Source: Pseudomonadota bacterium (lineage in GTDB: Bacteria; Chloroflexota; UBA5177; JAJPKF01). Taken from it: a stretch of 64,000 bases of DNA. The DNA is taken from NCBI GenBank assembly GCA_021323865.1, contig JAJPKF010000019.1, positions 130,747 to 194,746 on the forward strand, given 5' to 3'. The notes beneath the pieces are model-generated. The model worked only from the letters and a program-made list of their open reading frames with translations. It did not search any database and was not told where the DNA came from. Position numbers and translations under genes: made by a program. Positions 30,984-64,000 of the stretch are shown here, piece after piece (within the stretch, counting starts at the first letter, position 1; each line of letters begins with the position of its first letter).

Positions 30984-31002
30984 TGCCGGTCCTCCATCCT
31001 CA

Positions 31003-32678: not shown

Positions 32679-32707
32679 TCGAGTCCCTCCTCACGAGGGC
32701 GACGAGA

Positions 32708-34558
32708 TTACTCGCCGCCTTCCTCCGTGGAATGGAACTCCGCCTCGACGACGTCGTCAGGCGTTTCGGACGCACCCTGAGCGGCCCCGGCCCCGTCGGG
32801 CTCACCGGCGGCAGCGCCCTGAGCTTCGGTCTGCTGATAGACAGCCTGAGCCGCCTGGTTGAACGCCGTCTCCAGCTCTTGCTGAGCCGACTCAATCCGT
32901 CCCAGATCCGACTCCTTCAGCGCATCCCGCAGCGTCTGGAGCTTGGTCTCGATATCGATCTTCTCGGCAGACGGGACCTTGTCTCCGGATTCCTTCATGA
33001 ATCGCTCGACCGAATAGGCGTACTGCTCGCCCTTGTTGCGGATCTCGGCTTCCTCGCGGCCCCGTCGATCCTCGTCGGCATGCTGCTCCGCCTCCTTGAC
33101 CATCCGGTCAATATCGGAAGAACTGAGATTGGTTGATGCCGTGATGGTCACCTTCTGCTCGCGGCCCGTCCCCAGGTCCTTGGCGGTGACGTTCAGGATG
33201 CCGTTGGCGTCGATGTCGAAGGAGACCTCGATCTGTGGGATGCCCCTTGGCGCGGGCATGATGCCCTCGAGCCGGAACCGTCCCAAGGTCTTATTGTCGC
33301 GAGACATCTCACGCTCACCTTGGGTGACGTGGATATCCACGGCTGTCTGGTTGTCCTCAGCGGTGCTGAAGATCTCGCTCTTGTGGGTCGGGATGGTGGT
33401 ATTGCGGGGGATGAGCTTGGTGGCAATGCCGCCAAGGGTCTCGATCCCCAGAGAGAGCGGAGTGACGTCGAGCAGGACAACGTCCTTGACCTCACCGGCC
33501 AGGACACCGGCCTGGATCGCGGCCCCAACGGCGACCACCTCGTCCGCATTCACACCCTGGTGCGCCTCCTTGCCGGTGAGCTTCTTGACCAGCTCTTGGA
33601 TGACCGGCATTCGCGTGGAGCCGCCGACGAGCACCACCTCGTCGATGTCCTTCTCACTCAGCTTGGAGTCGGCCAACGCCTGCCGAAACGGGGGAATCGT
33701 TCGCTGGGTTAGGTCGTCGGTCAGCTCCTCGAACTTGGCTCGGGTGATGGTGGTGATCAAGTGCTTCGGCCCGGTGGCATCGGCGGTGATGAAGGGCAGG
33801 TTGATCTCCGTGGAGACCACCTGAGACAGCTCTTTCTTGGCCGATTCGGCCGCATCGAGAAGGCGCTGGAGGGCCTGCCGGTCCTTGCGGAGATCGATGC
33901 CGTTCTCCTTCTGGAACTCCTCAGCCACGTAGTCGACGATGCGGCGATCGTAGTCATCGCCACCGAGCTGGGTGTCGCCGGCGGTGGCCTTCACCTCGAA
34001 GACCCCATCGCCGACCTCCAGGACCGACACGTCGTAGGTGCCGCCACCGAGGTCCCAAACGAGAATGGTCTCCATTGACTTCTTGTCCAGACCATAGGCC
34101 AGCGAGGCGGCGGTGGGCTCGTTGATGATCCGCAGGACGTCTAGGCCCGCGATGGTGCCGGCGTCCTGGGTCGCCTTCCGCTGAGAGTCGTTGAAGTAGG
34201 CGGGAACGGTGATAACCGCCTGCTTGACCTCTTCACCCAGGTACTTCTCGGCGTCGGCCTTGAGCTTGCCCAGGATCATGGCAGAGATCTCCTGGGGGGT
34301 ATAGTTCTTTTCGTCGATGCTCGTTTTGTGATCGGTGCCCATCTTCCGCTTGATGGATGCAATTGTCCGGTCGGGGTTCACAACGGCCTGGCGCTTCGCA
34401 AGCTGACCAACCAGCCGCTGTCCGTCCTTGGTAAAGCCGACGACCGATGGCGTGAGCCGGCTACCCTCCGCATTGGTGATGACGGTTGGCTCACCGCCTT
34501 CCATGACGGCCACCACCGAGTTGGTCGTCCCTAAATCGATACCGACTACCTTCGGCAT
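32708..34558 (-). CDS. dnaK: molecular chaperone DnaK (Hsp70)
   Basis: 616 aa; '[10 protein letters not shown]', 'DLGGGTYD', '[10 protein letters not shown]' Hsp70 signatures. Confidence 0.97.
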
Positions 34559-50529: not shown

Positions 50530-51192
50530 CTAGGCTTCTTCTCGGGCCTCTCCCATGCCCGTGGTGGCAGGGAGCGATGTGTTGGACTGTTGTGCCGGGG
50601 ACCTGCCGGCGCTTGGCTGCAGCGTCTGACGCCAAACGTGGTAGATCCGCTGAAGGGCCGTGGCAGCAGTCAGAGCGACCAGGAGAATGAGAACCGGAAC
50701 AAGGATACCCAGCAGCAAGCCGAGGCCGAGAATAATGATCCGCTCGGGTCGCGGCAGAAGGCCCACCTTACACTCCAGACCCAATCCCTCAGCCCGAGCA
50801 CGGGTGTAACTGATCATGAACGATCCGACCAGGAACGCCAGCAAGAGAACAACGGCAGTCGTATTGTGGTGAACGGTGTAGGTGTAGGTCAGTCCGACGA
50901 CAATGGCCGCCTCGCTATAGCGGTCCAGAACCGAATCAAAGAAGGCGCCAAAAGTTGATTGCGACTGAGTGATCCTGGCGAGGGCGCCATCAAGCATGTC
51001 CGCGGCCCCCGCGAGCAGTAGCAGAACTCCGCCCAAGCGAAGGTTGCCGGTGGCGAGAACATAGGCGACGCCAACATTGAGGCCGAAGCCGAGCACGCTG
51101 ACCATGTTTGGCGTGAGTCCGACGCGGGCGAGCGGTCGAACGACGAGCTCGGCCATGCGCCGGCCCCAAGCCTGGACGCCTGAGCTGAACAT
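50530..51192 (-). CDS. CDP-alcohol phosphatidyltransferase (phosphatidylinositol-phosphate synthase-like)
   Basis: 220 aa; motif D-x2-DG-x2-AR-x8-G-x3-D-x3-D ('ADMLDGALARITQSQSTFGAFFDSVLD'); 3-nt spacing after pimA-like gene. Confidence 0.75.
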   Translation of the reverse strand: MFSSGVQAWGRRMAELVVRPLARVGLTPNMVSVLGFGLNVGVAYVLATGNLRLGGVLLLLAGAADMLDGALARITQSQSTFGAFFDSVLDRYSEAAIVVGLTYTYTVHHNTTAVVLLLAFLVGSFMISYTRARAEGLGLECKVGLLPRPERIIILGLGLLLGILVPVLILLVALTAATALQRIYHVWRQTLQPSAGRSPAQQSNTSLPATTGMGEAREEA

Positions 51193-51195
51193 GGG

Positions 51196-52383
51196 TTAGC
51201 CGGAGGGCGCGATCGTGATCGCGGTCTTGCCTGGAGAGAGGAGGTTGGACCAGGCAGGGCTTTCGTTCTCCGAGAGTCGAGCTCGCTCGCCGTAGAAGTG
51301 CAGGATGCGTTGGGCGATCTGCGGCCAGGCGAAATGGTGAGCCCAGGCCTGGCCTGCCGTGCCCATCTCGGATCTCAGTGAGGGATCCTGCAGCAGCTGA
51401 CAGATCGCGTCCGCCAAGGCTTGCTCGTTTCTTGGTGGAACCAGCAGCCCTTGCTTGCCGTGCCCCACCACGTCTCGATAGCCGTCAATGTCTGAAGCGA
51501 CGATGGCTACACCCGAAGCCATGGCTTCCAGGAGAACGATGCCGAAGCTTTCTCCTCCGGTGGCCGGCGAACAGAACACGTCGGCGCTCCTATATAAGGA
51601 GGGCAACACGGAGTCGGGCTGCCAGCCGAGGAAGATGATGTCGCGCAGGCCGTGGGTCTCGACATAGCCACGATAGCGGTCGCGCCCCCAGTCTCCGGCG
51701 CCCGCCACGACGATGCGGGCTTCAGGGAAGGCGTTCTTTATGGCCGGATAGGCCCGGATGAGGTATCCCAATCCCTTACGCTTTTCGGGCCGGCCAACGA
51801 AGAGGATGTTCGGTCGCCCATCGCTCAGTTCGGCAAGCGGTGAGGCAGACGCGAAGCGTTCGTAGTCGACGCCGTTGGGGATGATGGTGTACCGGGCCTG
51901 AAAATACTGTTGCACGAACTTCTTGGAGGCTCGCGAGACAGCAATACGCCCATCGAGATTCATGAATACGCGCTTCAACACGGGGCGTCCATAGAAATAG
52001 CCGTAGTAGGAGCCGCGGTGGGCATGGAACGTCCCGATGTTCAGGGCGTCTGAATAGCGGAGGATGGTTGGCGGGAGCGCGGGCATGAGGGGCTCGTGGG
52101 CGTGGACCACATCGAACTGCTCGGCTCGGAGGATGTCGCGCACCCGGCGAGCCAGCCGGAACGACAAAGTGATGCGGGCGATGGAGCCGTTGGCCCGCAC
52201 CCGGGTGACCCTCCCGACCCGATAGACGTTGTCCATCTGCTTCTCGATTTGACGGTTGGATGACGGCGCAATGATGCGGACGTCATGACCCAGATCGAGG
52301 AACTCCTGCTGGAGGTGCAGGACGTGCTGGGTGACTCCACCGGGATAGGGAAAGTCGTAGGGAGAGACAAGGGCGATTTTCAG
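51196..52383 (-). CDS. pimA: GT4 glycosyltransferase, phosphatidylinositol alpha-mannosyltransferase (PimA)-like; non-canonical start
   Basis: ORF track starts at ATG 52236, but in-frame upstream codons encode 'KIALVSPYDFPYPGGVTQHVLHLQQEFLDLGHDVRIIAPSS…', the conserved GT4/PimA N-terminus; bounded by TAG at 52384..52386; CTG at 52383 has GGAGG 7 nt upstream. Confidence 0.65.
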   Translation of the reverse strand: MKIALVSPYDFPYPGGVTQHVLHLQQEFLDLGHDVRIIAPSSNRQIEKQMDNVYRVGRVTRVRANGSIARITLSFRLARRVRDILRAEQFDVVHAHEPLMPALPPTILRYSDALNIGTFHAHRGSYYGYFYGRPVLKRVFMNLDGRIAVSRASKKFVQQYFQARYTIIPNGVDYERFASASPLAELSDGRPNILFVGRPEKRKGLGYLIRAYPAIKNAFPEARIVVAGAGDWGRDRYRGYVETHGLRDIIFLGWQPDSVLPSLYRSADVFCSPATGGESFGIVLLEAMASGVAIVASDIDGYRDVVGHGKQGLLVPPRNEQALADAICQLLQDPSLRSEMGTAGQAWAHHFAWPQIAQRILHFYGERARLSENESPAWSNLLSPGKTAITIAPSG

Positions 52384-52520: not shown

Positions 52521-52553
52521 GCCAAAAGGAAAGGGCCCGCATTACGCGGGCCC
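52521..52553 (-). terminator. rho-independent terminator for 52576..53094 gene
   Basis: GGGCCCGC-ATTAC-GCGGGCCC hairpin; on minus strand followed by CTTTCCTTTTGG. Confidence 0.55.
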
Positions 52554-52575
52554 CTTTGTCGATACGGAGGTTGTT

Positions 52576-53094
52576 CTAGTGCTTGCCCTTCTTGTGGGGA
52601 AGGACCATGTACATGCGCGGATGCTTGCTGGCGTACTGACCCTTGGAGTCCTTCCACAGCAGCGTCCACTTGCCCTTTTCCTTGCCCTTCTTGTGGAAGA
52701 CGTAGACGTCGAAGCCGTCCTTGTTGAAGGTAATGGGCTCTTTGAGGTCGTGGACCTTCTTGCCGGTAACGGAGTCATACATGAGGATGCGGAAGCACTG
52801 CGCGCCCTTGGGGGAAGCCTTCGGGCAGGCAACCGTAGACGTCACGACGTTGATCGGATCTTTGCCGTGAGGCCGGAAGTTGAACGACTGGCCCTGGGGC
52901 TTGCCGTTCTTACCCTTCTTTCCGCCCTTGACGCCCGGAACGTGGGTCTTCTTGAAATGGCCCGGCTTTGCCGTGCCGCAATTCCCCTTCGAATAGCCCT
53001 TGGCCGAGCATGCGGAGGCGACCCCGGATGATGTGGCGGCGGCGAACGCGGTCATAGGAACGATTAAGACAAGTGCTGCGAGGACCTTCTTCAC
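52576..53094 (-). CDS. small secreted lysine-rich protein, 4 Cys (hypothetical)
   Basis: 172 aa; signal peptide MKKVLAALVLIVPMTAFAAA; about 19% Lys (KGGKKGKNGK, KKGKEKGK); native GC-rich codon usage. Confidence 0.55.
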   Translation of the reverse strand: MKKVLAALVLIVPMTAFAAATSSGVASACSAKGYSKGNCGTAKPGHFKKTHVPGVKGGKKGKNGKPQGQSFNFRPHGKDPINVVTSTVACPKASPKGAQCFRILMYDSVTGKKVHDLKEPITFNKDGFDVYVFHKKGKEKGKWTLLWKDSKGQYASKHPRMYMVLPHKKGKH

Positions 53095-53185
53095 AAGCTT
53101 CTCCTTGGTGGTGTCGGTGTGGGCCGCTTCGTCACGCTTAGCATCAGTCTATAGTACGCAGACAGATTTGGCAAGCAGCAAATTT

Positions 53186-55198
53186 CTAGAGAGGGTGCCT
53201 CTTGTCGGTAAAGAGGCTAGGCAAGATGTACGGGTCGCCCTCATAGACGTGATGGGGCGGTGAGTAGGATGCCGGATGTATTGGGCCGCCCACCGGCACT
53301 GACACCCGGTTCAGCCTCTGCGTCACGGGTACTGTCAGCTTTACTCCTCCCTTCCCTCCGATGGTCACGCCGCCCGTGCCGAGTACCTCTAGGTGTATCG
53401 TACCAAGGTACGAGCCCGGTTGTCTCTGGATGGTCAGCTGGTAGCGGTTGCCGGTGAAGGCGGACGGAGGGACCAGGTAGCGGAACACCACCACATCGGT
53501 GTGGTTTTCCTTGACCCCCATGCCGCCGGCAAGCTGTCGCGCTCCGTACGCCGTTTCGTCGGCCCAGGCATCGATGCCGCTTGATCCGAGCAAACGGGCG
53601 CCGGGGGGCACGTAGATGCGCAGGAAATCCAGGTAGTCGTGCTTGGTGCCGCCCAACCCGAAGTGGGGACCGAACCCCTCCAGGGTGTTGGGCGAGCGAT
53701 TCACATGGTAGCGCAGCGTCAGGGTGGCCTGCGCCCATAGATCGGGGCGTACGACCACGTGATACGTAACTGCTTCTCGCACGTAGGGATTGAGCTTGTT
53801 GTAGGAACGATTGTCGTCGACGATGTAGAGGAAATCGTGTTGCGGGCGGGCAATCGTCCCCTCCGCACCGACGTCGACGATGGTCCGCTCGATGGCCGGA
53901 TTGCGATCGTACATGAGCAGATGCTCCTGAGCCACCGCCCTATGGAGGCCTGTTGCCACGCGCAGGAAGCCGGGGATCCCCATTCCCTGGAGGCGCTTGA
54001 TCATGACGCCCATGAAGACGCCGAGGAAACTCGTCTTGCTGGCATCTGCACGCGCCTGACTGGTCGAGAAGGGATGCCTGGTTCCGTAGATGTAAAAGTT
54101 GGCCACAGCCTGGGCATTCTTGGCGGCGACGACTCGGCGATAGCCGGGGACGTAAACCGGCCCCGTCGCTTGCAGGATATCGGCGGCGCCGTCGGTCACA
54201 TTCACGACCATCGGAGCCCACCGGCCCGTATCCTCGCCATACAGCCATCGTTCAAACCGGGCGGACAAAGGAAAGCTGGGAGACCAGTTGGAATCCCGGA
54301 ACAGCCAGCTCACTTCATCCGTATATGTGGCCATCGGTGCGGGTATGGGCATGGTGATCTCATGGCTGAGGGCGCTGCCGCTCGGCTGAGTCGAGACGAT
54401 ACCCTTACGAACCGTCATGTAGTTGACTGCTCCGATGAAGCCGCCCGTGGATCGCAGCTCACGACGGTCTTCCCATGCGAGCAGAATATGGCTGGGCCGC
54501 GACCAGCCGAGTAGCGTCGGCGCCGCCGTGAGCCATTCGGCCGAATTGCGCAATCCCGGCAGCTCGCCCCGAAAGCGGTGGAGGCTTCGGTTGAGAACGG
54601 CGCTTCCCAGATTGACCGGTGCTCCCCGGAGCGCGGCGAGGGCGCTATCGAACTCTCGAGTTGCGGTCATGAAGCGCAGGTGACCCCTGGCGAGTACGGG
54701 CAGAATACGAGGCAAAAGCGGCTGGCCGGGGCGGTGGGCCGCCAGGATCGACCACATGGGAGAGGAGGCGTCCAGGAGGCTCAGGGCCGCCGAGGTGCTG
54801 TCCCGGCCCGCGGTGGCCAGCGGAGCGGCAGCCGCCAGCTCCGAGCCGACGCCCGGAACCCAGCCCAGATGGCCCAGAAGTGGCTCCCAGAGGACGAGAT
54901 CGTTCTCGGCCAATCCGAACTCGCCATTCGCGGCCGAGAGGTGGCTATTGAGCTGCTGCCGCATGGTCGGATCTTGGAGAGCCGTTAGGTTTCCCGCCAC
55001 CGACCGGGCGATGTTGAGATCGGCGACCGCATTCGACAGGTGTCTGCGGGCCTGCACCAGCTGCACCAGAGCCACGAGCGCTATGACGATAAGGGCTGCG
55101 GTCAAAAGGCGCTTCACTAGCTGCCGCTTTGCCCTGATGTGCACGATCGGGGTTGCCTTGGGCCGTGTCTGGGCCCTCACAGGGATTGCTGCGCTCAT
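53186..55198 (-). CDS. DUF4012 domain-containing membrane-anchored protein
   Basis: ATG 55198 (alternative GTG 55252); N-terminal TM 'LLTAALIVIALVALV' then a >600-aa extracytoplasmic domain; DUF4012 assigned from overall architecture (N-terminal TM plus large ~600-aa extracytoplasmic domain), motifs recalled from memory, low certainty. Confidence 0.5.
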   Translation of the reverse strand: MSAAIPVRAQTRPKATPIVHIRAKRQLVKRLLTAALIVIALVALVQLVQARRHLSNAVADLNIARSVAGNLTALQDPTMRQQLNSHLSAANGEFGLAENDLVLWEPLLGHLGWVPGVGSELAAAAPLATAGRDSTSAALSLLDASSPMWSILAAHRPGQPLLPRILPVLARGHLRFMTATREFDSALAALRGAPVNLGSAVLNRSLHRFRGELPGLRNSAEWLTAAPTLLGWSRPSHILLAWEDRRELRSTGGFIGAVNYMTVRKGIVSTQPSGSALSHEITMPIPAPMATYTDEVSWLFRDSNWSPSFPLSARFERWLYGEDTGRWAPMVVNVTDGAADILQATGPVYVPGYRRVVAAKNAQAVANFYIYGTRHPFSTSQARADASKTSFLGVFMGVMIKRLQGMGIPGFLRVATGLHRAVAQEHLLMYDRNPAIERTIVDVGAEGTIARPQHDFLYIVDDNRSYNKLNPYVREAVTYHVVVRPDLWAQATLTLRYHVNRSPNTLEGFGPHFGLGGTKHDYLDFLRIYVPPGARLLGSSGIDAWADETAYGARQLAGGMGVKENHTDVVVFRYLVPPSAFTGNRYQLTIQRQPGSYLGTIHLEVLGTGGVTIGGKGGVKLTVPVTQRLNRVSVPVGGPIHPASYSPPHHVYEGDPYILPSLFTDKRHPL

Positions 55199-55267
55199 CT
55201 CAGTGCATGCTGCGTCACGTTGCGGCGATGACCACGCCGACCTAGGAGCCACACGGCCTCCAGCCGC

Positions 55268-56905
55268 TCAGTGGCGCGAGTGGGACCGGCCCTGATTGTG
55301 GGGCTGGGCGGGAAGGACGATACGGCTACCACGATGTACCAGCGTGAGGTCGACTGAATTAGAGAAGGGGCCTCGGAAGAACAGCAGGCTCTTGACGGTG
55401 ACGGCGACCTCCCAGCGATAGTGACCGGCCGGCAGGTTGGCCCGGACGCATGAACCCTTTGCGGGCTTGAATCGGTGCAGGTGGGTCTGCCGGGTTCCGG
55501 TGAACGTGCCGATGCGGGCATCGTAAACGGCGTGCGACATCGAACGATGCCAGCACAGGAAGACGAGGCGGCTCGCCCCCTTCTGAGGCCCGAGGGCGAT
55601 ATGGAGCCCCGTCGGAGATTGCAGATGAGGACCGACGTAGAGGCCTGTTCGGCGACTGTAGGGCGCCCACAACTTGAGCGGCGCCAAGGAGCGCACCCGC
55701 CAAAAGTAAAACCGGCCGCCCTTCACGTTCTGCAGGACGTAGTGGTCGGCTCGCTGCACCCGCGATACCAGTGGATGGCGCCACACGGCCCGATTGGGGT
55801 CCTTCCGACGGGCCGCGACGATCTGCAGCTGATACCGAGAGGCCAACCCGCTGCCGTTCCAAGAGATGGGCACGGTCGGGCCCCACGTCATGTACCGGAT
55901 ACCGGGACGCGGAATCTGGGCGCCGGCGGGCACTTGGACCGCAGGAATAAGCAAGAGGGGAAGGACGATAAACAACATGATGTTGATGCTGCCGTGGGCG
56001 AGGGTGACGCCGAACAGCGATTTGGTTCGCAACACCACGGCGCTGAAGTACACGGCAACGACGAGAACGAACAGCAGGTCGAGGGGATTGTGCCATCCGA
56101 TGTGCAGCGCGGCAAAGATAAGGGCCGTAAAGGCCACGCCCAATCCGGTGCCCAGCCACCGCGTGCTGACCGTTTGGATCAAGCCTCGAAAGATGAATTC
56201 CTCAAAGAGGCCGGTGAAGATCATGAGAATCAGGGCTCCGCCGATGATCCAGAGCCAGGACGGGCTGACCATGGGCTGAACACCGAGGATGGACCACTCG
56301 CCCACCCCCAGAATGACTCCACTGCAGGCGACCGCAATCTCAAGCGGCAGATTCTGTGGGTTGGGCGGAACGAGGTTCAGATCCTTCCAGGACAGCCCGA
56401 TATTCTTGGCGATCAGTCCCCCGCCGGCGAATACCGGAACCGCCGTGAGGAGATACCAAAAGGCCTGCGGAACCTGGCCGAGCGGCATGGAGAGGCTGAT
56501 GACGCGAATCATGGGGGCGACCGCGCAGGTCAAGAGAAAGGCCCGTCGGTTTCCCGAAGCTTCCGACCCGGCCAGCAGCAGAATGGTCAACAGGACGATG
56601 TCGATGCCGACTCCCACGACCGCGCCGATGGGATGATTCTGTACGGTGACGTAGGTGATGACCGTCTCGGACAGAATGACGGCAGCCAAGACCAATCCGG
56701 CGATGGTGAGATCTGTCCGGCGGTCGGACGGCTTGCGTTGGGCATCGCTCCGTTTCACGGGGCGAGCCCCGGCCTTGCGACGAGCGGTCGTCACGGATGT
56801 CGGCGAAGACTGAACCGGGATCGGCTGGCTCCTGGCCGACATACCGAAAACTCGGCGCAACCCATCCATGCCGCCCGACTGGCGCGACGAAACCTGCTTG
56901 TTCAT
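55268..56905 (-). CDS. CPBP family intramembrane glutamic endopeptidase (CAAX protease/Abi) with C-terminal extracytoplasmic domain
   Basis: 545 aa; conserved 'EEFIFRG', 'FAALH', 'HGSIN' CPBP motifs in multi-TM region; ~200-aa C-terminal soluble extension. Confidence 0.65.
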   Translation of the reverse strand: MNKQVSSRQSGGMDGLRRVFGMSARSQPIPVQSSPTSVTTARRKAGARPVKRSDAQRKPSDRRTDLTIAGLVLAAVILSETVITYVTVQNHPIGAVVGVGIDIVLLTILLLAGSEASGNRRAFLLTCAVAPMIRVISLSMPLGQVPQAFWYLLTAVPVFAGGGLIAKNIGLSWKDLNLVPPNPQNLPLEIAVACSGVILGVGEWSILGVQPMVSPSWLWIIGGALILMIFTGLFEEFIFRGLIQTVSTRWLGTGLGVAFTALIFAALHIGWHNPLDLLFVLVVAVYFSAVVLRTKSLFGVTLAHGSINIMLFIVLPLLLIPAVQVPAGAQIPRPGIRYMTWGPTVPISWNGSGLASRYQLQIVAARRKDPNRAVWRHPLVSRVQRADHYVLQNVKGGRFYFWRVRSLAPLKLWAPYSRRTGLYVGPHLQSPTGLHIALGPQKGASRLVFLCWHRSMSHAVYDARIGTFTGTRQTHLHRFKPAKGSCVRANLPAGHYRWEVAVTVKSLLFFRGPFSNSVDLTLVHRGSRIVLPAQPHNQGRSHSRH

Positions 56906-57054
56906 GAACGACCCTAACTCTCAAACCCCGCCGGAGGGGCCGTCGAGGAGACGGGCTCGTTCGCGGGCATGCTTTTGCAGTGTAGCCGAAAGGCAATGCA
57001 ACTGAGAAATGGCCTGGAAGGCCATCAGTGGCCCTCCAGGCGCTTCGGCTAGGA

Positions 57055-58518
57055 CTAGGAGCTTGGGGGGGCCAGGGCGTAGATGTGCCCGGGTGTGTCC
57101 GGGAGACCCCTGGCGTCACTGGCGTACAGCGTTCCGTTGGAAACCGAGAGCGGAGCGGGGAACGCTGCTCCCGGAACCGCGAGATGGTACAGTACCTGGC
57201 CGTCCTGGGTCGAGACGCCCAAGACTTGATTCCCGCACCCCGCGAAGGCGACGCCAGGCACCACCGTCACGGCTCCCTGGCAGTAATGCGTGACGCAGGT
57301 TTGCCAGAGGAATTTGCCGGTGTTGGGGTTCATCGCCCGAATGCTGCCCGCGCACGTGTTCCCGGCAATGGTTGTTTGGCCTTCGGCCGCAAACAGCCGC
57401 TTCCCGTTCCAGGCGGCGGAGCCCAGATTGATTCCACCATTGAAGGGATTGCCTTGGAAGAGGCCGATCCGCTTCTCCCACACCGGTCCGGCACCCAGAT
57501 GGTCGGCTCGAAAGGCGTAGTAGATCCCGTTCTTGTTCACCGCTCCCACCATCTCGGTCTTCCCCAGGGTGGGCAGGGTGGCCTGGAAGATGGTAGGCGT
57601 GGCGCCGAAGTCGGCGTCATCCACCTGCTGAGCCGGGGGCACCTCCCAATGTCCGAGCAGTGAGAGGTCGCGCGCGCTCAGCTCGATCATCGATTCTCCA
57701 TAGGTGAGCAGCGACTGCGGGCATGTTCCTGGATTCCCCGTGTCCACGTAGATCGTTCCACGGGCGGCATCCAGGGCCGGTGATCCCCAGATTCCGTCGC
57801 CGACACAGCCGCTGAGGGCCGTCTCGTACACGTGCACGATCTTGCCCGTCGATGCGTTTAACTCAAATACCCCGCTGGGAACCAGGGGACAATCGCTCAC
57901 CGACGCCAGGCCGATGATCACCATACCTCGGTACACGATTGGAGAGTCCCAGATGAACCCGCTGTTCTGGAGTCCGATGCGGGTCTTCCAAACCACCTTT
58001 CCTGTGCCGGCACGCAGGGCGTACATCTGGCTGTCGCCGCCGCCAACAATGAGAACGCGACGGTTTTGCCCGTGGCGCTGGATGGTGGTCACCACGCCGG
58101 ATGAGCTGGGACCATATCGGGTGAAATCGCAGTGCGGAGTGCTCGAGTCACCCACCCAGGTAGACCACAGGGGTTGCCCCGCCGTGTCGCTGGCATGCTC
58201 ATAGCCATCCCACGAAGCCCAGTACACCATTCCGCCGACGACGATTGGTTCGGTGGTCACGGGACCGTTGGCATTGATGGTCCATTGGGTCGTCAGAGTA
58301 GGTGCTGTGACGGGGTTGATGGCCGTTTCGCCGGCCGCATAACTGGTTCTCCCGGGACTGCCGAGATACATCGGCCAGTCCTTCGAGGGGACGGAGCGCA
58401 GGGCATGCGCCTGGATGGGCTGCCACGCGACAGAGAGGCAAAGGAGGGCCAGCACTCCGCTAACCAGAAATGACCACAGCGTACGCGGGGAGACGAGGCG
58501 GGGAAGATGACGGTGCAT
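57055..58518 (-). CDS. PQQ-like beta-propeller repeat protein, secreted
   Basis: 487 aa; signal peptide; repeated 'G-x-V/I-Y…G…A…D…G-K/T-x-W' PQQ/BamB-like blades. Confidence 0.65.
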   Translation of the reverse strand: MHRHLPRLVSPRTLWSFLVSGVLALLCLSVAWQPIQAHALRSVPSKDWPMYLGSPGRTSYAAGETAINPVTAPTLTTQWTINANGPVTTEPIVVGGMVYWASWDGYEHASDTAGQPLWSTWVGDSSTPHCDFTRYGPSSSGVVTTIQRHGQNRRVLIVGGGDSQMYALRAGTGKVVWKTRIGLQNSGFIWDSPIVYRGMVIIGLASVSDCPLVPSGVFELNASTGKIVHVYETALSGCVGDGIWGSPALDAARGTIYVDTGNPGTCPQSLLTYGESMIELSARDLSLLGHWEVPPAQQVDDADFGATPTIFQATLPTLGKTEMVGAVNKNGIYYAFRADHLGAGPVWEKRIGLFQGNPFNGGINLGSAAWNGKRLFAAEGQTTIAGNTCAGSIRAMNPNTGKFLWQTCVTHYCQGAVTVVPGVAFAGCGNQVLGVSTQDGQVLYHLAVPGAAFPAPLSVSNGTLYASDARGLPDTPGHIYALAPPSS

Positions 58519-58679
58519 GGGGAAAGTACCTCTTGGTTCCTAGTGCTCTTGAGAGCAACGTACGGATTGTATACCGGCCCCCGATCTCACCCTCTTGGGC
58601 CTCGGCGAGACCAGAAGCCATCCCATGTACATTTGTGAGTGTTCGCGCTCGCTCGGCCGGCGCATCCGACGGCTCGATC

Positions 58680-59786
58680 GTGAGACGGCGCATCGGCATA
58701 AACGGCAACCTCATCTCTTCCGACCCATCGTTCCGGTCGGCCGGCATCGCTACCTATATACGGCGCCTTGCAGAACGGTTGCCCGTGGTCGACCCCGACA
58801 CCGACTATGTGCTGTTTGGACAACTGGCCACTGGGCTCATGGTCCGCAGCTGGGGCTGGACGAGGCGGCGAGAGGGCCGAATCATATGGGAACAGGTCCT
58901 CTCCCCCATCCAGGTGCGAACGGCAAGGCTCGGACTGCTTCACAGCCCTGCAAACGTGGCGCCGGTAGCACTGGGCTTGCCCAGTGTTGTTACGGTCCAC
59001 GACCTTACCTTCATTCGCCAGCCCGAATGGTTCCATGGCCGAGACCGGTTCATCCTGGCCCCGCTCATGAGGCTGAGCATCCAGCGGGCCGACGCGGTCA
59101 TCGTCCCTTCCGCATCCACGGGTCGGGACGTGGCGGAACACTACTCCCTGCCGGAAGACCGGATCGAGGTGATTCCCGAGGGTGTGGATCCGCGATTCTC
59201 TGAGACGACCCCGGTCTCGGCGCCCGTCCCATACCCATACATCCTGCATGTCGGCACCATCGAACCGCGCAAGAACCTTCCGGTTCTGATCGAGGCGGCT
59301 GCCCGGCTGCGGGCCCTCGCATTTCCGCACCGCTTGGTGTTGGTAGGCGGTCGCGGCTGGAAGTACGAGGCAGTGCTCACGGCGATTCGAAACCACGGCT
59401 TGGAGGATTGGGTCGTCGAGGCGGGCTTCCAATCCGACTTATTGCCCTGGTATCGGTACGCTGCGGCGTTTGTGTATCCCTCCGCGTACGAAGGCTTTGG
59501 GCTGCCGCCGCTCGAGGCGATGGCCTGTGGCGTACCGACGGTGGTATCCAGCGGCGGTAGTTTGCCTGAGGTGGTCGGAGATGGCGCCGTCGTGGTACCG
59601 GTCGGCGACGTGTCTCGCCTTGTTCAGGCATTGGAAATGGTCCTAAGAGACTCGCCGTCAACCGCAGATTTGAAACGGCGTGCCACGGAGAAGGCTCGCT
59701 CGTACTCATGGGACGCTTGCGCGGAGCGCACGGCGCAAGTATTCCACGCGGTTCTTGATTCCAGGGCCCGAATGGGGACGGGATGA
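58680..59786 (+). CDS. GT4 glycosyltransferase
   Basis: GTG 58680 (RRRIGINGN…); C-terminal 'YPSAYEGFGLPPLEAMACGVPTVVSSGGSLPEVVGDG' EX7E motif. Confidence 0.7.
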   Translation: MRRRIGINGNLISSDPSFRSAGIATYIRRLAERLPVVDPDTDYVLFGQLATGLMVRSWGWTRRREGRIIWEQVLSPIQVRTARLGLLHSPANVAPVALGLPSVVTVHDLTFIRQPEWFHGRDRFILAPLMRLSIQRADAVIVPSASTGRDVAEHYSLPEDRIEVIPEGVDPRFSETTPVSAPVPYPYILHVGTIEPRKNLPVLIEAAARLRALAFPHRLVLVGGRGWKYEAVLTAIRNHGLEDWVVEAGFQSDLLPWYRYAAAFVYPSAYEGFGLPPLEAMACGVPTVVSSGGSLPEVVGDGAVVVPVGDVSRLVQALEMVLRDSPSTADLKRRATEKARSYSWDACAERTAQVFHAVLDSRARMGTG

Positions 59787-60991
59787 GAAATCGGAATCCT
59801 TCCCAAGCGAACCGGGCGCCCAGAGGCCTTCGGATCGGGATTCTGACCTACGGCATGGGGAAGGAGCTCACGGGTATCGGCACCTATACCCGTGATCTCA
59901 CCTATGCCGTGCGTGAGGCATCCCCCGAGACGGAGATCATCCTGCTGAATCCTCATCCGGAGTCGACCCTGGACTGGTACAACGACTTTCCGGTCTTGGC
60001 GCTTCCGATGCTGGCCACGCCGGCCCCCATGGTCGCGCTCGGCGCCATGGTCCTCGCATGGGTCAGTCGCCGGCTGGGCTTGGACATTCTGCACGATGCC
60101 TGCAATATCGCCCCGTTCCTGGCGCCCAGGCTGGGAGTACGGCGGGTGGTGACCGTCTACGACACCATTCCACTGCTGGCGCCACAGGCCTATCCGCTCA
60201 TGCACCGTGTGGCCTACCGGACGTTCATTCCGGCCGCCCGTTGGACGGCCGATGCGGTCATGACCGTGAGTGAGGAGTCGGCTCGTGACATCTCCAGACT
60301 GACGGGGATTCCGCGGCACAAGGTGCACGTGACCTATCCGGGTATCCGTTTGCCCTCGGAACAGGAGCTGGCCGGCTGGCGCAACAAGGTCCCCGAGGTC
60401 CTCTCCCAGTTCGGCATCACCGAGCCGTACTTTCTCTATCCCGGCGCTCTGAATCCCCGCAAGAACATGGTCCGCGTCACGCAGGCGTTCGAGTCGCTAT
60501 TGCAGCGTGACTCTGAGGTACAGTTGGTTCTCGTCGGTCCAAACAGCTGGCCCTCGGAGAAGGTTGAGCGGGCCGCCGCCCGGATTGGACGGCGGTTGCT
60601 GCGACTGGGGTATGTGGATGCGGAAACCCTACATATCCTCTATACTGGTGCTCGGGCCGTCGTGTACGTGTCGTTGTATGAGGGCTTCGGCTTTCCGGTC
60701 CTCGAAGCCATGGCGCATGGCACCGCGGTCATTACGTCGAATCGGTCATCATTACCGGAGGTCGCGGGCGACGCCGGCTTGCTGGTCGATCCGACGGAGC
60801 CTGGGGAAATAGAAGGTGCAATGGACCGGTTACTGTCTGACCGCTTTCTCGCCTCCTCGCTTTCGGAGCGGGGCCGGAACAGGGCGGCAGAATTCTCGTG
60901 GGCTCGGTCTGCTCAGGAAGCGCTTCGAGTGTATCGGGCGGTCGCGGGTTGTCCATCACCCCCGAACCCGGAGCACATTGGGTCCGACTGA
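59783..60991 (+). CDS. GT4 glycosyltransferase
   Basis: ATGA overlap with upstream GT4; 'VSLYEGFGFPVLEAMAHGTAVITSNRSSLPEVAGDAGLLVDP' EX7E motif. Confidence 0.8.
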   Translation: MRNRNPSQANRAPRGLRIGILTYGMGKELTGIGTYTRDLTYAVREASPETEIILLNPHPESTLDWYNDFPVLALPMLATPAPMVALGAMVLAWVSRRLGLDILHDACNIAPFLAPRLGVRRVVTVYDTIPLLAPQAYPLMHRVAYRTFIPAARWTADAVMTVSEESARDISRLTGIPRHKVHVTYPGIRLPSEQELAGWRNKVPEVLSQFGITEPYFLYPGALNPRKNMVRVTQAFESLLQRDSEVQLVLVGPNSWPSEKVERAAARIGRRLLRLGYVDAETLHILYTGARAVVYVSLYEGFGFPVLEAMAHGTAVITSNRSSLPEVAGDAGLLVDPTEPGEIEGAMDRLLSDRFLASSLSERGRNRAAEFSWARSAQEALRVYRAVAGCPSPPNPEHIGSD

Positions 60992-61048
60992 CGCAATGTC
61001 TCGTTCTGGAGTTCCGACAGCGCACCCCAACTTAGACGGTGACCGGCC

Positions 61049-62911
61049 GTGAGTGAATCGACCGCGACGCGCATGCAGGAGCCTGCGGCCACACCAGTCG
61101 ACACGCCAACTGTAGCGTCCGACCCTCGCCGCAGGGCTCGTCGCCTATCCCTCCGTGCAACCACCGTCCAAATGCTTGCCCAGTGGGTCATGGTCTTGGG
61201 GTTTGTGGTCTTTGCGTATCTCGTCGTCCGCCGACCATTCCAGAGTGATCCCTCCGTCCAGAATCTTGCGGTTCTGATCGATCTCCTCATCGCCACACTG
61301 AGCACCGGCATCGCGGCGGCATCGGTTCGGTCGGGACGGAGCTGGGTGATATTTTCGGCTCATCTGGTCGTTGCCGGGTTCTTGGTGCGCCTGATCCCCA
61401 GCCTGATCCTGTCTCTTCCGCCGTATCAAGATCCGTATCCGTACTTTTCGACCTTCCTCATCGCATGGAGGAGCAAGTCGTTCTCGCCGACCTCGTTCTC
61501 CTGGTTCAAGGCGACTCCGGCCGAGCTCCACTGGCCACTGCTGCAGTCCCTGACGGTCGAGATTCGGGCGTGGACGGGCATGTCGCTGACCGACCTGATC
61601 ATCCTTGTGCCACCCGCACTGGGAGCGCTCACCTGTGTTGCCGCTTCGCTGGTGGCCTACAGTGTGTATCGATCCTGGCGAACCGCGGCCATTGCCGGGC
61701 TCCTGGTGAGCTTCACCGACGTGGTGATCTTCTATCAAAGCGAGTACCACCCGCAGGGGGTGGCTCTCCTGACGTTTTCGCTGCTCATCTACTTGATCCT
61801 GGAGTCCCGAGCTGCTCTGCGCCTCGGTGCGAGCATCCTCACCCTTCTCGTAGCCGGCGCGTTCCTCCTGACGCACCACGCCTCGGCGCTGGTCGTCCCG
61901 CTCGTGTTGCTACCGTTGCTGGCGATCCCCTTCCTGGCCAGACTTGTGACGACCTATGGGTCAGAGGGTTGGCTGGCAAGATTCAAGCTTCGCGAGATGC
62001 TAAAGGACCTGGACATGGGGCCCTTCGAGCGGCTGGTCCCCATCGTCCTGCTGCTTGTCGTGTGTGGGCTGAGCATGCAGATCTTCTTGTCGAATTCGAT
62101 TCTGTTGCTGGTTGTTCACCAGTTCGATCGAGGCGGTCTGCCCATTGCCAATGCCTCTACCGGCACGAGTCTCTGGCTCCTGCTGCTCCGCTTCGGCAAA
62201 TACCTGCTGCTGCCGATCAGCTTCGTGGGTCTCTTCCTGAGTGCCAGGCGCATGGACGCGAAGCGACTGATCCTGCTGGTGCTGGCGGTTGGACTGGCGG
62301 CCGCAAGCGCTCCCGCCCTGGCGACGGGCAGCACCAGCATCGACCGCATCATTAGTTTCTGGGCGCTGTTCGCCTCGGTCCTTGCCGCCTTCGGGTTGAC
62401 TCGTTGGCTGCCCGGCGCGCTCGGGATTCGACGTTGGGCCGGAGCCTTAGCCGTAGGCGCCATTGCCATCTACAGCTCACTCGGGATCCTCGACGCCCAA
62501 ATCCCGGCCTTCTACCTGAGCCACACGCCTCGCGTCCGGGGACTGTTCTACGGCAACGCACTCCCCAATTCCCGAAGCATCGCGCTGGCCGGCCATTGGG
62601 TTCGATATCACATCCCGCGAACGGCCTACGTGGACACTGATTTCGCTACGCGTGTCGGCGTCTTCTTCTTCGGTCGGATCCCCTTCAATCAGGCCATTTA
62701 CACGCCCCTTCGAGTGCCGTGGAGGGACTATTGCAAGGCGAGTTACGTGGTCGTCGACCCGGCGATGGACCGCGGATTCGACATGCCGGGGCCGGTCCCC
62801 ATCAATTACTCGGGCTATGCCCGGATCTATGACAACGGCTCCGTTGTGGTGTACCAGCGGCAGCGGGGACAGACCTGCACCTTTAATCCGTTGGCGAGGC
62901 CGAAGCACTGA
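61049..62911 (+). CDS. polytopic membrane protein, possible GT-C-type glycosyltransferase or polymerase
   Basis: 620 aa; >=10 TM helices followed by C-terminal soluble domain; context within glycan cluster. Confidence 0.5.
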   Translation: MSESTATRMQEPAATPVDTPTVASDPRRRARRLSLRATTVQMLAQWVMVLGFVVFAYLVVRRPFQSDPSVQNLAVLIDLLIATLSTGIAAASVRSGRSWVIFSAHLVVAGFLVRLIPSLILSLPPYQDPYPYFSTFLIAWRSKSFSPTSFSWFKATPAELHWPLLQSLTVEIRAWTGMSLTDLIILVPPALGALTCVAASLVAYSVYRSWRTAAIAGLLVSFTDVVIFYQSEYHPQGVALLTFSLLIYLILESRAALRLGASILTLLVAGAFLLTHHASALVVPLVLLPLLAIPFLARLVTTYGSEGWLARFKLREMLKDLDMGPFERLVPIVLLLVVCGLSMQIFLSNSILLLVVHQFDRGGLPIANASTGTSLWLLLLRFGKYLLLPISFVGLFLSARRMDAKRLILLVLAVGLAAASAPALATGSTSIDRIISFWALFASVLAAFGLTRWLPGALGIRRWAGALAVGAIAIYSSLGILDAQIPAFYLSHTPRVRGLFYGNALPNSRSIALAGHWVRYHIPRTAYVDTDFATRVGVFFFGRIPFNQAIYTPLRVPWRDYCKASYVVVDPAMDRGFDMPGPVPINYSGYARIYDNGSVVVYQRQRGQTCTFNPLARPKH

Positions 62912-62929
62912 TGCACGCGAGCGCGCGAC

Positions 62930-63601
62930 ATGCCTAGTTTCCTCGCCCTTACCGTATCGCTCTTCGTCTTCTGGACGTTTGGGGCGTTGATCGTGTCCGT
63001 GTGCTGTCCGCGATTCTTTACCCCATGGCCGATCTCTTGGGCGGTATCGCTGCTCAGCGGCATCGCCATGATGGGCGTGCTCGGGGTGGGGCTTGGTCTT
63101 GTAACGTCCGGTTCCCCCTGGTTCTCGCGGTCTGCCACGGTAGAGCTGCCGGTCGCGGTCGTGGTCGCCATTCTGCTGATTGTTCGCTGGGTTCGCGATC
63201 AAAGACGCGCCGGCGGCTTGCCCGCTCCCCGGCTGACACGATTGTCGGGACCCTTTGTGCTCTCCATCCTCAGTCTCGTTCTCTTCGTGGCTATGGTTTC
63301 GGTGGTATGGGCCAAGCGACCGCAGCCGGCAGGAGCCATTCAGCTGAGCGGCGCAAGACAAGGCTCTGCGGCGGTGCTCACAGTCTTGTCGACCTACGCA
63401 AAACCGGTCACTATTCGGCTCAACGCCGTCTGGACGGCCAACGCTGGAACCCATTCACGGCCCCTCGGTCCGATACGGATCGGCACCAAGCCCGTGCACT
63501 TTACGATCCCCGTTCCATACCAGCTGAAGGTGAGTTTGTACCGTGTACAATCCGGATCCAGCCAGGGTCGAGCCGTCCAGTGGCTTGTCCTCCCGCCATA
63601 G
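62930..63601 (+). CDS. hypothetical membrane protein
   Basis: 223 aa; 4 predicted TM helices, then about 100-aa soluble tail; ATG 19 nt after upstream stop. Confidence 0.5.
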   Translation: MPSFLALTVSLFVFWTFGALIVSVCCPRFFTPWPISWAVSLLSGIAMMGVLGVGLGLVTSGSPWFSRSATVELPVAVVVAILLIVRWVRDQRRAGGLPAPRLTRLSGPFVLSILSLVLFVAMVSVVWAKRPQPAGAIQLSGARQGSAAVLTVLSTYAKPVTIRLNAVWTANAGTHSRPLGPIRIGTKPVHFTIPVPYQLKVSLYRVQSGSSQGRAVQWLVLPP

Positions 63602-63640
63602 ATCCGGGAACCTCCTCAACGGACAAGGAGCTTTTTTGAG

Positions 63641-64000
63641 ATGGGCGGGCGGAAGCCCGGCCTGAACGTCGCCTATGTCACCTGGCAGTTTCCGCCCTAT
63701 GTGACGGGCGGCTCGGGCCAGTACGCGGCGGAGCTGGTTCCCGCGCTTCAAGATGCCGGGTGCGAGATAACGGTGTTTGCCCCGGAGGGGGCGAGCCTCG
63801 ACGGGGTCCGTACGGTTGCCGTCAGTCCCGAGCCTGCGGGCTTGGTCGCCTTCTGGCGGCGCCTTCCGGCGGTTGTTGGCCGGTTTCCCAGCAAGCACTT
63901 CGATGTGATACATGGCAACGATATCTGGGATCTGTCGCTCCGCCGTGAGGGCCGGCCCGCCGCGCGGGTCATGGGTGCACACCACGTTCGGCAGCGGAAG
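63641..64000 (+). CDS. GT4 glycosyltransferase (5' partial, continues beyond window)
   Basis: ATG 63641 after AAGGAG; 'VAYVTWQFPPYVTGGSGQYAAEL' GT4 N-terminal glycine-rich motif. Confidence 0.6.
   Translation, partial: MGGRKPGLNVAYVTWQFPPYVTGGSGQYAAELVPALQDAGCEITVFAPEGASLDGVRTVAVSPEPAGLVAFWRRLPAVVGRFPSKHFDVIHGNDIWDLSLRREGRPAARVMGAHHVRQRK

Follow-up and report, generated by a model that had tools for sequence, protein, structure and literature searches.

Toward the end of a 64,000-nucleotide window of genomic DNA (contig JAJPKF010000019.1 of assembly GCA_021323865.1, positions 130,747 to 194,746; all positions below are counted from the first letter of this window), we identified a chromosomal locus of several operons. 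With moderate confidence, we interpret it as building an envelope glycan on a polyprenyl-phosphate carrier that is then finished outside the membrane by an enzyme of the GT-C glycosyltransferase fold. The candidate for this last step, herein termed G, belongs to a protein family that, judged by its modeled fold, is a GT-C family absent from the databases and literature searched. The region from 48 to 64 kb of the window was analyzed using a map of its open reading frames (ORFs), with domains called by Pfam at curated gathering cut-offs and by NCBIfam. The same proteins were located on public contigs (~332 kb; Logan run SRR5579884, with copies in NCBI, JGI, and ENA) by exact-sequence look-up, and genes past the window end were read from the matching public contig, which comes from a metagenome-assembled genome (locus L006). 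The genes on which the interpretation depends are:

61049 to 62911, plus strand: G, polytopic glycosyltransferase of GT-C fold, 620 aa (AlphaFold model, Foldseek)
62930 to 63601, plus strand: H, membrane protein of 223 aa with ~4 transmembrane (TM) helices and a C-terminal beta domain (ORF; no Pfam match)
58635 to 59786, plus strand: E, family 4 glycosyltransferase (GT4), 383 aa (Glycos_transf_1, 8.8e-32; gene call on public contig)
59783 to 60991, plus strand: F, GT4 (Glycos_transf_1, 1.2e-29)
63641 to 64000, plus strand: I, third GT4, cut by the window end and 400 aa long on the public contig (Pfam and NCBIfam GT4; L006 10712-11914)
57055 to 58518, minus strand: D, PQQ-repeat (BamB-like) beta-propeller, secreted or anchored, 487 aa (PF13360)
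55268 to 56905, minus strand: C, CPBP (type II CAAX protease-like) intramembrane protease, 545 aa (PF02517)
53186 to 55252, minus strand: B, DUF4012 protein, 688 aa (PF13196)

Together with gene A (52576-53094), which encodes a small secreted protein, B, C, and D lie on the minus strand, and genes E to I run divergently from D on the plus strand. Gaps between genes are short throughout, and the TGA stop codon of E overlaps the ATG of F as ATGA at 59783-59786, in keeping with the coupled GT4 pair proposed in a preliminary description that had been made from the sequence alone. The ORF map contained every contiguous envelope gene of that description where it had been placed, including the three GT4s and two polytopic proteins, and the three domain assignments that it had singled out as decisive (DUF4012, CPBP, and PQQ) all scored above Pfam thresholds. 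The presence of these genes is independent of chance matches. The boundaries given earlier, 52576 to 64000, have to be widened on both sides, as the locus begins at ~50.5 kb with genes for a phosphatidylinositol phosphate (PIP) synthase-type enzyme and a PimA-like GT4 (50530-52383) and reaches 10 kb or more beyond position 64000.

Past that end, on the strand shared with G and H, the public contig completes GT4 I and encodes a Wzx/MOP flippase (PF01943) and a Sulfotransfer_3 protein. On the opposite strand there follow a family 2 glycosyltransferase (GT2), an 84-aa ORF, an acyltransferase of PF03279, two BNR/sortilin-like proteins, RmlC, and a second PF03279 acyltransferase that is cut by the locus end. 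The best NCBIfam matches of the GT2 were AglJ (3e-44) and the polyprenyl-phospho-GalNAc synthase PpgS (3e-38), and two hydrophobic helices at its C-terminus give it the architecture of DPM1, GtrB, and ArnC. The locus had also been called an island. We found that G+C content is flat (0.61-0.64), that no flanking repeats or mobile-element genes are present at the locus borders, and that repeat and tandem-repeat scans of 50-64 kb returned only short chance matches besides a duplication within A. The locus is therefore native rather than a compositional island, and horizontal acquisition as an island of foreign or mobile DNA is not supported.

G is predicted to have ~13 TM helices followed by a small C-terminal alpha/beta domain of ~130 aa. 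We preferred a GTG start at 61049 over the 579-aa call on the public contigs because TM helix 1 of the model spans residues 26-61, and the shorter call cuts into this helix. No Pfam or NCBIfam family matched G, in the case of Pfam even at E ≤ 10, and a word-indexed search recovered G itself only. An exhaustive HMMER search of 1.84 billion representative proteins recovered 89 relatives of ~550-620 aa, 19 of which were below 1e-30. Among 49 aligned members, Q236, H276, and R433 are invariant and several other positions are nearly so, including D128, which lies in a YPPLxDPY block and is kept by at least 90% of the members, E232 (in FYQSEYHPQG), W152, and W162. D128 sits after TM3, in the first long loop, which the positive-inside rule places outside. 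Three of the 49 weakly matched PMT_2, and single members matched PMT, DUF6541, and PTPS_related, all of which we take to belong to the GT-C clan.

The AlphaFold2 model of G, built from the 49-member alignment, is confident (predicted local distance difference test score, 88.9; predicted template modeling score, 0.91). A Foldseek search of the PDB with this model returned 25 matches at E ≤ 1e-3, and every one was a GT-C enzyme. The 16 best were without exception catalytic subunits of oligosaccharyltransferases (OSTs), that is, STT3A/B, yeast Stt3, AglB, and PglB (E 2e-9 to 1e-5), and these were followed by AftA, ALG12, ArnT, DPY19, ALG9, and AftD. Hence, the GT-C-like topology first suggested for the 620-aa protein was borne out by both the model and the fold search. 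Membership of G in the STT3/AglB/PglB family was considered and rejected, since G has neither the WWDYG motif nor the STT3 Pfam domain (PF02516), the latter even at E ≤ 10, and for the same reasons we consider G to represent a new GT-C family with an OST-like shape. A profile search of PDB sequences with the G alignment recovered nothing.

The neighborhoods of G homologues connect it to a recurrent set of partners. In L088 (G at 40% identity), an 8.6-kb contig that lacks Wzx, the gene order is GT4, G, a 226-aa protein, a 426-aa protein, GT2, GT4, and CPBP, the last being truncated and a member of the subfamily of C (42% identity; profile E 3e-71). At 34% identity (L089/L090), an AglJ-like GT2 heads a run of epimerase, GT4, acetyltransferase-like, GT4, G, a 228-aa protein, a 589-aa protein, Wzx, GT2, and GT4. 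Two NCBI assemblies with G at 23% identity (L091/L092) have glycosyltransferases before G and Wzx with sugar-nucleotide genes after it. The GT2 at the head of the L089 run is 49% identical to that of our locus, and the GT2 of L091 matched at 5e-66. Homologues of H (226 and 228 aa) directly follow the G homologues in L088 and L089 (BLASTP 3e-8; phmmer 3e-12). As far as gene order indicates, GT4-G-H is a conserved core, and of the four distinct loci that have it, three also carry the AglJ-like GT2.

The protease C matched the Rce1-like/CPBP family over residues 219-310 (PF02517; 55 bits against a cut-off of 22.4; 1.1e-14). Its EExxxR, FxxxH, and HxxxN motifs correspond to E235-E236-R240, F264-H268, and H304-N308. 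Among 11 subfamily members, E235-E236-R240, H304-N308, and F264 are invariant, and H268 is retained in at least 90%. Motifs of this kind (EExxxR, FxxxH, HxxxD/N) characterize active CAAX proteases (PMC12260438), and because all three are intact, C is predicted to be catalytically competent as a protease. Additional helices at the N-terminus carry a conserved APLIR..SL.MPL..PQ..WY block. Beyond the last TM helix, ~215 aa remain with no Pfam match, in line with the C-terminal extension of ~200 aa reported previously. A word-indexed search found 10 relatives of C, among which the protease core is followed by FN3 (P0003) or LysM (P0007, P0009) domains or preceded by TPR (P0004), and the tail of C aligned with the FN3-containing tail of P0003. 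From this alignment and the model, the extension is probably all-beta, with two FN3-like domains. The TM core of the model is confident, and the C-terminus was modeled as beta strands with low confidence, unreliable past residue 322. Foldseek gave no PDB match to C at E ≤ 1e-3; Rce1 was not among the 50 matches listed, and weak matches were to FN3 and monobody-like structures. BLASTP self-comparison detected no repeat between the halves of the extension. A role for C as a C-terminal sorting protease was rejected (MrtJ, 33 bits against a cut-off of 75; MrtS, 23.9 against 130), and none of A, B, and D has a C-terminal TM sorting tail.

In a scan of species-representative genomes, the CPBP subfamily was found mainly in Chloroflexota (Anaerolineae, Dehalococcoidia, and Chloroflexia), Bacillota (Peptococcaceae, Pelotomaculum, and Desulfocucumis), and Archaea (Methanosarcina, Methanobacteriaceae, Bathyarchaeota, and Thermoplasmatota). 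Among 65 loci with enough upstream DNA, a DUF1616 gene lies directly upstream of CPBP on the same strand in 27, and anywhere in the locus in 38. This DUF1616-then-CPBP pair recurs in Chloroflexota, Bacillota (Pelotomaculum, Desulfocucumis, and Desulfoscipio), Methanosarcina, and Bathyarchaeota (L007-L075; for example, L023:9070-10822), with a GT4 just upstream of it in 32 loci. AglJ-like GT2 homologues are present in 17 CPBP loci and Wzy_C-TPR genes in seven. In five loci (L039, L005, L060, L065, and L042), the G-family profile matched large membrane proteins encoded directly upstream of DUF1616. Judging by these gene orders, a CPBP-DUF1616-GT4(-GT-C) module is widespread across domains of life, and it is absent from the databases and literature searched. 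The preliminary description had instead paired the protease with the propeller; this pairing is not conserved elsewhere and appears lineage-specific, since none of the other CPBP loci analyzed has a D homologue, and the recurrent partner of the protease is DUF1616. One subfamily member has a different setting (L002:10001-19410), where the genes downstream of it comprise two small ORFs (79 and 69 aa), a PqqD-like gene, an ABC exporter, and three radical-SAM genes, one with an ScmC domain. This cluster resembles one for peptide modification, as in ribosomally synthesized and post-translationally modified peptides, unlike the glycan context.

CPBP/Abi proteins that act in the cell envelope are known from Staphylococcus aureus, where SpdC-SagB, SpbR-SpsB-LtaS, LnsB, and MroQ have been described (PMC12260438; bioRxiv 10.1101/2020.05.21.109470). 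As in those cases, C is polytopic and has an Rce1-like domain, and the staphylococcal proteins act in envelope-polymer assembly through partners or cleavage. However, SpdC, SpbR, and LnsB are degenerate and non-catalytic, whereas the subfamily of C keeps all three catalytic motifs, and C differs further from the S. aureus proteins in its extra N-terminal helices and C-terminal beta extension. The partner of its subfamily is DUF1616 rather than a hydrolase or signal peptidase.

The small protein H may bring a DUF1616-like component to our own locus. Its four N-terminal TM helices and beta-rich tail are as in DUF1616, and a position after a G-type GT-C is likewise shared. H has no match in Pfam, where DUF1616 is PF07760, and a DUF1616 HMM built for this analysis gave only E 0.054 with a negative score. 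When the H family (three members) was aligned by hhalign to 20 DUF1616 proteins, 198 columns were colinear at 66% probability (E 5e-5), so that H is likely, but unproven, to be a distant DUF1616 relative. Haloferax HVO_2173, a membrane protein with AglB-dependent N-glycans (PMC8241124), is the one DUF1616 case with functional information in the literature searched, and a profile search of PDB sequences with a DUF1616 alignment recovered nothing.

B matched DUF4012 with 63.6 bits (PF13196; cut-off 28; 3.6e-17). A single TM helix at about residues 43-72 forms an N-terminal membrane anchor for a large extracytoplasmic body, and B is conserved over ~650 aa across 39 relatives. Its LRxTGGFI and RDSNWSPDFP blocks are conserved and shared with 38 relatives. 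A profile search of PDB sequences with the DUF4012 alignment recovered nothing. A metagenome scan recovered 80 DUF4012 relatives (L093-L172; best, 44% identity). In 42 of these 80 loci, DUF4012 adjoins a TMEM260-like (PF11028) GT-C gene, which mostly lies directly upstream (for example, L108:8316-11839); in animals, TMEM260 is a protein O-mannosyltransferase of a GT-C family (PMC10214176). In L093 and L095, which hold the two closest relatives of B whose flanks are long enough, the next gene downstream is an orthologue of the AglJ-like GT2 (1e-116 and 1e-101). From these neighborhoods, DUF4012 is predicted to be generally linked to GT-C enzymes and to the machinery for polyprenyl-phosphate sugars, and in this locus G is the GT-C on hand. 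The linkage of DUF4012 to GT-C is strong and apparently unreported, being absent from the databases and literature searched. Published accounts of DUF4012 consist of context annotations only (PMC5412050, PMC6744442), in one of which the family is reported as enriched in Gram-positive bacteria, Chloroflexi, Cyanobacteria, and the Candidate Phyla Radiation. One member, BL105A_0406 of Bifidobacterium longum 105-A, lies in an exopolysaccharide cluster beside a priming transferase and Wzz (PMC5412050). The present protein shares with such Gram-positive exopolysaccharide or capsular polysaccharide representatives the Pfam family and a setting in a glycan-synthesis cluster; unlike them, it and most of its metagenomic relatives have as neighbor a gene for a GT-C or for a GT2 that makes polyprenyl-phosphate sugar, in place of Wzz or a priming transferase.

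From these components we infer the following sequence of events. The AglJ/PpgS-like GT2 beyond the window, which has two C-terminal TM helices, would load a sugar onto polyprenyl phosphate, after which the soluble GT4s E, F, and I would lengthen the lipid-linked glycan at the cytoplasmic face. The glycan would probably be sulfated by the adjacent sulfotransferase and then be carried across the membrane by the Wzx/MOP flippase. G, together with its conserved small partner H, would transfer the glycan, or a lipid-linked sugar, to an extracytoplasmic acceptor. The divergent D-C-B operon would provide extracytoplasmic helpers, of which the DUF4012 protein and the CPBP protease may act on the acceptor or the machinery by positioning or processing it, and propeller D may be a lineage-specific addition. 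Finally, A could serve as a basic ligand of the anionic (sulfated) product or of another anionic envelope polymer.

We lean toward en-bloc transfer of the kind seen in the archaeal Agl (AglJ, AglB, AglR) and Campylobacter Pgl (PglA/H/J, PglK, PglB) pathways because no phosphoglycosyl transferase, Wzy, or Wzz was seen among the genes annotated, because an AglJ-like GT2 heads the run in L089, and because OSTs come first in the fold ranking of G. Further likenesses to these pathways are the best match of the locus GT2 to AglJ, the MOP/Wzx-type flippase, weak matches of the soluble GT4s to PglH, PglJ, and Agl16, and a polytopic GT-C, G, with STT3, AglB, and PglB as its top structural matches. Like the Haloferax Agl pathway, which starts on dolichol monophosphate, the locus lacks a phosphoglycosyl transferase among its annotated genes. 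There are also differences. G is outside the STT3 family and has a small C-terminal domain (~130 aa) and two additional TM helices at its N-terminus; no N-X-S/T sequon occurs in A; and the DUF1616-like, CPBP, and DUF4012 partners belong to this locus and not to Agl or Pgl.

The locus was also compared with multi-component transmembrane glycosylation, in which a GtrB/CsbB-type GT2, a small flippase, and a GT-C of the YfhO, GtrC, or ArnT type cooperate (PMC8035078). It shares with these systems a GT2 of the polyprenyl-phosphate sugar synthase type with C-terminal TM helices and a GT-C, and in three independent loci a member of the GT2 family accompanies one of the G family. In contrast to these systems, Wzx takes the place of a GtrA-type small flippase, which was not seen in the locus annotation; G matches OSTs better than ArnT; and the presence of three to four GT4s argues for an oligosaccharide rather than a single-sugar decoration.

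Several observations weigh against the proposed pathway or against its coherence. Template modeling scores of G to OST structures are only ~0.5, and its fold is matched as well by enzymes with monophosphate sugar donors (ArnT, AftA, and the ALG type). With neither WWDYG nor an STT3 Pfam match, the case for OST-like chemistry of G is its fold ranking alone. The genes for the GT2, Wzx, and sulfotransferase are located past the window end, that for the GT2 on the other strand, such that their co-function with G is deduced from proximity and recurrence. A homologue of D occurs in none of 85 CPBP-related loci, and DUF4012 adjoins the CPBP subfamily in only two of ~70 loci (L005 and L009); because both adjacencies are rare, the D-C-B operon is perhaps a local assembly and not a unit with G. 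The link between H and DUF1616 stands at 66% probability only, and since A has no homologues its place in the scheme is conjectural. We assign a lower probability to a polymerase (Wzy-like) or phosphatidylinositol (PI)-lipoglycan (PimE/Mpt-like) role for G.

A polysaccharide or glycoconjugate cluster is in itself an ordinary find. Envelope glycan biosynthesis in single-membrane lineages that are poorly cultured, Chloroflexota-like ones among them, is almost uncharted, and the locus provides a handle on four uncharacterized families: the G family of GT-Cs, DUF4012, DUF1616 with its DUF1616-like relatives, and the CPBP subfamily with catalytic motifs. Their joint recurrence extends across bacterial phyla and into the archaea. 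If G transfers a glycan to protein or wall, it would represent a new branch of en-bloc glycosylation enzymes, and the association of C with it would give a catalytically competent bacterial CAAX-type protease its first functional context in glycan assembly. A bolder proposal, which we put forward tentatively and consider rather improbable, is that G, H, the CPBP protease, and DUF4012 together form an unrecognized extracytoplasmic glycosylation machine of Chloroflexota, Bacillota, and methanogenic and other archaea. In such a machine, a non-STT3, OST-shaped GT-C would transfer en bloc a flipped, polyprenyl-monophosphate-linked, and possibly sulfated oligosaccharide to envelope proteins or wall polymers, with the protease obligatorily processing the acceptor or the DUF1616 subunit. 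This would constitute a second, independent OST-like lineage with a proteolytic coupling step. If G is not such a transferase, the locus would be merely another variant polysaccharide cluster.

A rival reading is a classical Wzx/Wzy locus for exopolysaccharide or capsule, in which G would be the repeat-unit polymerase with an unusual, GT-C_A-like fold, DUF4012 a co-polymerase or export auxiliary of the kind proposed for exopolysaccharide clusters of Bifidobacterium, and the priming transferase would be encoded elsewhere in the genome. We regard this as unlikely. G homologues are surrounded by Wzx, several GT4s, and sugar-nucleotide genes, G is the sole polytopic polymerase candidate in our locus, Wzy proteins are diverse and often escape Pfam, and the B. 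longum cluster places DUF4012 beside a priming transferase and Wzz (PMC5412050). On the other hand, G has no match to Wzy_C (PF04932), and structures of the WaaL or Wzy type are missing from the 50 fold matches listed, which do include OST, ArnT, AftA, and ALG enzymes. Pfam annotation of the locus revealed no phosphoglycosyl transferase, nor did a scan of the larger window ORFs, and Bac_transf, WecA-type, Wzy_C, and Wzz domains were all absent from the ~35 kb annotated, so that of the pathway set Wzx alone was found there, with neither a phosphoglycosyl transferase nor a chain-length regulator. Moreover, the other G loci encode further unannotated membrane proteins (410-589 aa) that could be the true Wzy, and bona fide Wzy_C-TPR genes occur separately in the seven CPBP loci mentioned above.

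We next consider a PI-anchored lipoglycan pathway akin to that for actinobacterial phosphatidylinositol mannosides (PIM), lipomannan (LM), and lipoarabinomannan (LAM). Here, an acylated PI-glycolipid would be extended by GT4s and flipped, and G, as a PimE/MptA/AftA-like enzyme, would elongate it outside the membrane using the polyprenyl-phosphate sugar made by the GT2. Two genes that form one operon immediately upstream suggest this alternative:

50530 to 51192, minus strand: PIP synthase-type CDP-alcohol phosphatidyltransferase (NCBIfam; Pfam CDP-OH_P_transf on the public contig)
51196 to 52383, minus strand: PimA-like GT4 (GT4 matches)

The same enzyme classes as in the mycobacterial pathway (PgsA1, PimA, PatA, and Ppm1; PimE, MptA, and AftA) are thus found within ~25 kb. 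Of the two PF03279 acyltransferases downstream, the complete one had a PIM acyltransferase as its top NCBIfam model (3e-43), the GT2 looks like a polyprenyl-phosphate sugar synthase, and the fold search with G matched AftA and AftD. Nevertheless, every match to the PI pathway fell below its curated equivalog cut-off. The phosphatidyltransferase scored 164.8 bits as archaetidylinositol-P synthase (cut-off 180) and 130 bits as PIP synthase (cut-off 170), the complete acyltransferase scored 147.9 bits (cut-off 209), and the PimA-like protein matched only generic GT4 models in NCBIfam. G lies outside all mycobacterial GT-C Pfam families. In the other G loci (L088-L092), no CDP-alcohol transferase or PF03279 gene is present within 10 kb, so the link to PI genes is local at best. 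PI genes are housekeeping genes in PI-containing bacteria and may be mere neighbors, and gene A, with a promoter and terminator of its own, parts the PimA-like gene from the rest. Taken with these points, we consider a PI-lipoglycan role for G quite improbable.

The start of the PimA-like gene required separate attention. An ATG at 52236 yields only 346 aa, and the in-frame stretch KIALVSPYDFPYPGGV... lies upstream of it. The conserved N-terminus (LKIALVSPYDFPYPGGVTQHV...) reaches an in-frame CTG at 52383-52381, directly after a TAG stop codon, and between this CTG and the ATG at 52236 there is no further ATG, GTG, or TTG. Judging by this reading frame, the gene likely has a CTG start or, alternatively, a sequencing or assembly error at its start codon.

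It may also be that no functional unit exists and that independent envelope genes are adjacent by chance, their pairings reflecting general envelope-gene clustering. Consistent with this, propeller-CPBP and CPBP-DUF4012 neighbors are seen rarely or nowhere else, the genes fall into four transcription directions or units, and envelope glycan genes commonly cluster without strict co-function. Yet the DUF1616-CPBP (27/65) and DUF4012-TMEM260-like (42/80) pairs recur across phyla and domains beyond what loose clustering would give, GT4-G-H remains syntenic at 34-40% identity between the G proteins, and the ATGA coupling of E and F and the short gaps throughout likewise argue against it. We judge chance adjacency to be very unlikely and retain the polyprenyl-phosphate-based glycan pathway, finished by G, as our interpretation.

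Gene A and its presumptive signals are arranged as follows:

52576 to 53094, minus strand: A, lysine-rich basic secreted protein, 172 aa (composition, signal peptide)
53146 to 53174, minus strand: sigma70-like promoter match upstream of A (TTGCCA-17-TAGACT, 9/12 positions)
52524 to 52556, minus strand: intrinsic-terminator-like hairpin and U tract downstream of A (sequence reading, fold energy)

A has an N-terminal signal peptide and four cysteines, as initially described; the lysine content, previously put at ~19%, is 17.4% for the full protein and 18.3% for the predicted mature part, the isoelectric point of which is 10.1. An AAG:AAA ratio of 28:2 and G+C at third codon positions of 0.83 agree with the native codon bias claimed for A and, if anything, lean toward high expression. 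An AAGGAG ribosome-binding site is located just 5′ of the GTG start. Sigma70-like matches are no more common here than in shuffled sequence, making the promoter weak evidence. The terminator that had been assigned to A was recovered at 52530-52556 as an 11-bp GC-rich stem, AAAGGGGCCCG/CGGGCCCUUU (-22 kcal/mol), followed by CCUUUUGG; a simple terminator scan missed this hairpin, and its fold z-score is only -1.3. A is monocistronic, forming a separate and probably well-expressed transcription unit.

With respect to relatives, the sole further sequence recovered for A among 5.8 billion was a 99% identical variant from the same population, a word-index search returned A itself only, and A had no match in Pfam, NCBIfam, or a single-sequence search of the PDB. 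XBBXBX is the Cardin-Weintraub consensus for binding of sulfated glycosaminoglycans. A contains three such motifs (GKKGKN, HKKGKE, and HKKGKH) against 0.69 expected from composition-preserving shuffles (p = 0.016). A 27-nt direct repeat within A (52571-52597 and 52670-52696; 81% identity) encodes HKKGK twice, which indicates a recent internal duplication that added basic motifs and from which two of the three XBBXBX motifs appear to stem. The most economical guess is that A binds a sulfated or otherwise anionic envelope glycan, either the product of this locus or another polymer, in view of the sulfotransferase in the adjacent operon. That A and C instead form a bacteriocin/immunity-style pair apart from the glycan genes, with A as an antimicrobial and the CPBP (Abi-type) protein providing self-protection or processing, is in our view barely credible: A is indeed small, basic (isoelectric point 10.1), secreted, equipped with four cysteines, and without homologues, as fast-evolving toxins often are, CPBP/Abi proteins include bacteriocin immunity and maturation factors, and the subfamily member in L002 adjoins a radical-SAM/PqqD/ABC peptide-modification cluster, but the dominant conserved context of the subfamily is DUF1616, GT4, GT2, and GT-C and not small secreted peptides, the DUF4012 gene lies between A and C, A has its own promoter and terminator, and its signal peptide is of the standard Sec type with no dedicated exporter nearby.

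Propeller D matched PQQ_2 with 56.8 bits (PF13360; cut-off 27.6; 3.3e-15) and has a hydrophobic N-terminal segment at residues 12-36. Assignment as a quinoprotein dehydrogenase was rejected (TIGR03075, 56 bits against a cut-off of 480), and D weakly matched the 'empty quinoprotein' family TIGR04528. Nothing of note was seen in a 34-aa ORF located between C and D (56921-57025). Across the divergent region, the maximal ORF of E (58470-59786; 438 aa) includes an extra 165 nt (58470-58634) that overlap the 5′ end of D. On the matching public contig, E starts at GTG 58635, leaving a 116-bp intergenic region to D, and a start near 58680 (MRRRIGI...) is a possible alternative. E and F have the C-terminal GT4 domain at 1e-29 to 1e-32 and the N-terminal Glyco_transf_4 domain at 1e-13 to 1e-15; I was assessed on its full-length copy in L006. 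Farther along that contig (L006:17169-19654), the two adjacent BNR/sortilin-Vps10-like proteins are beta-propellers of 412 and 410 aa, encoded between the PatA-like acyltransferase and RmlC.

The remainder of the window encodes housekeeping functions, including ClpB, DnaK/DnaJ, Lon, transhydrogenase, and others, and Rfam and tRNA scans of the entire window returned nothing. An AT skew of about -0.2 at 28000-34000, over the minus-strand genes for ClpB, DnaJ, and DnaK, is similar to that at 60-64 kb over G and H; it mirrors coding strand and composition and is no separate feature. At the far end of the window, in a second spot with glycan-related genes ~46 kb from the locus, minus-strand genes at 889-5922 include two GT4 genes (889-2268 and 2258-3607) and a bifunctional PfkB kinase/cytidylyltransferase-like gene (4417-5922) with the HldE/RfaE architecture for ADP-heptose synthesis.

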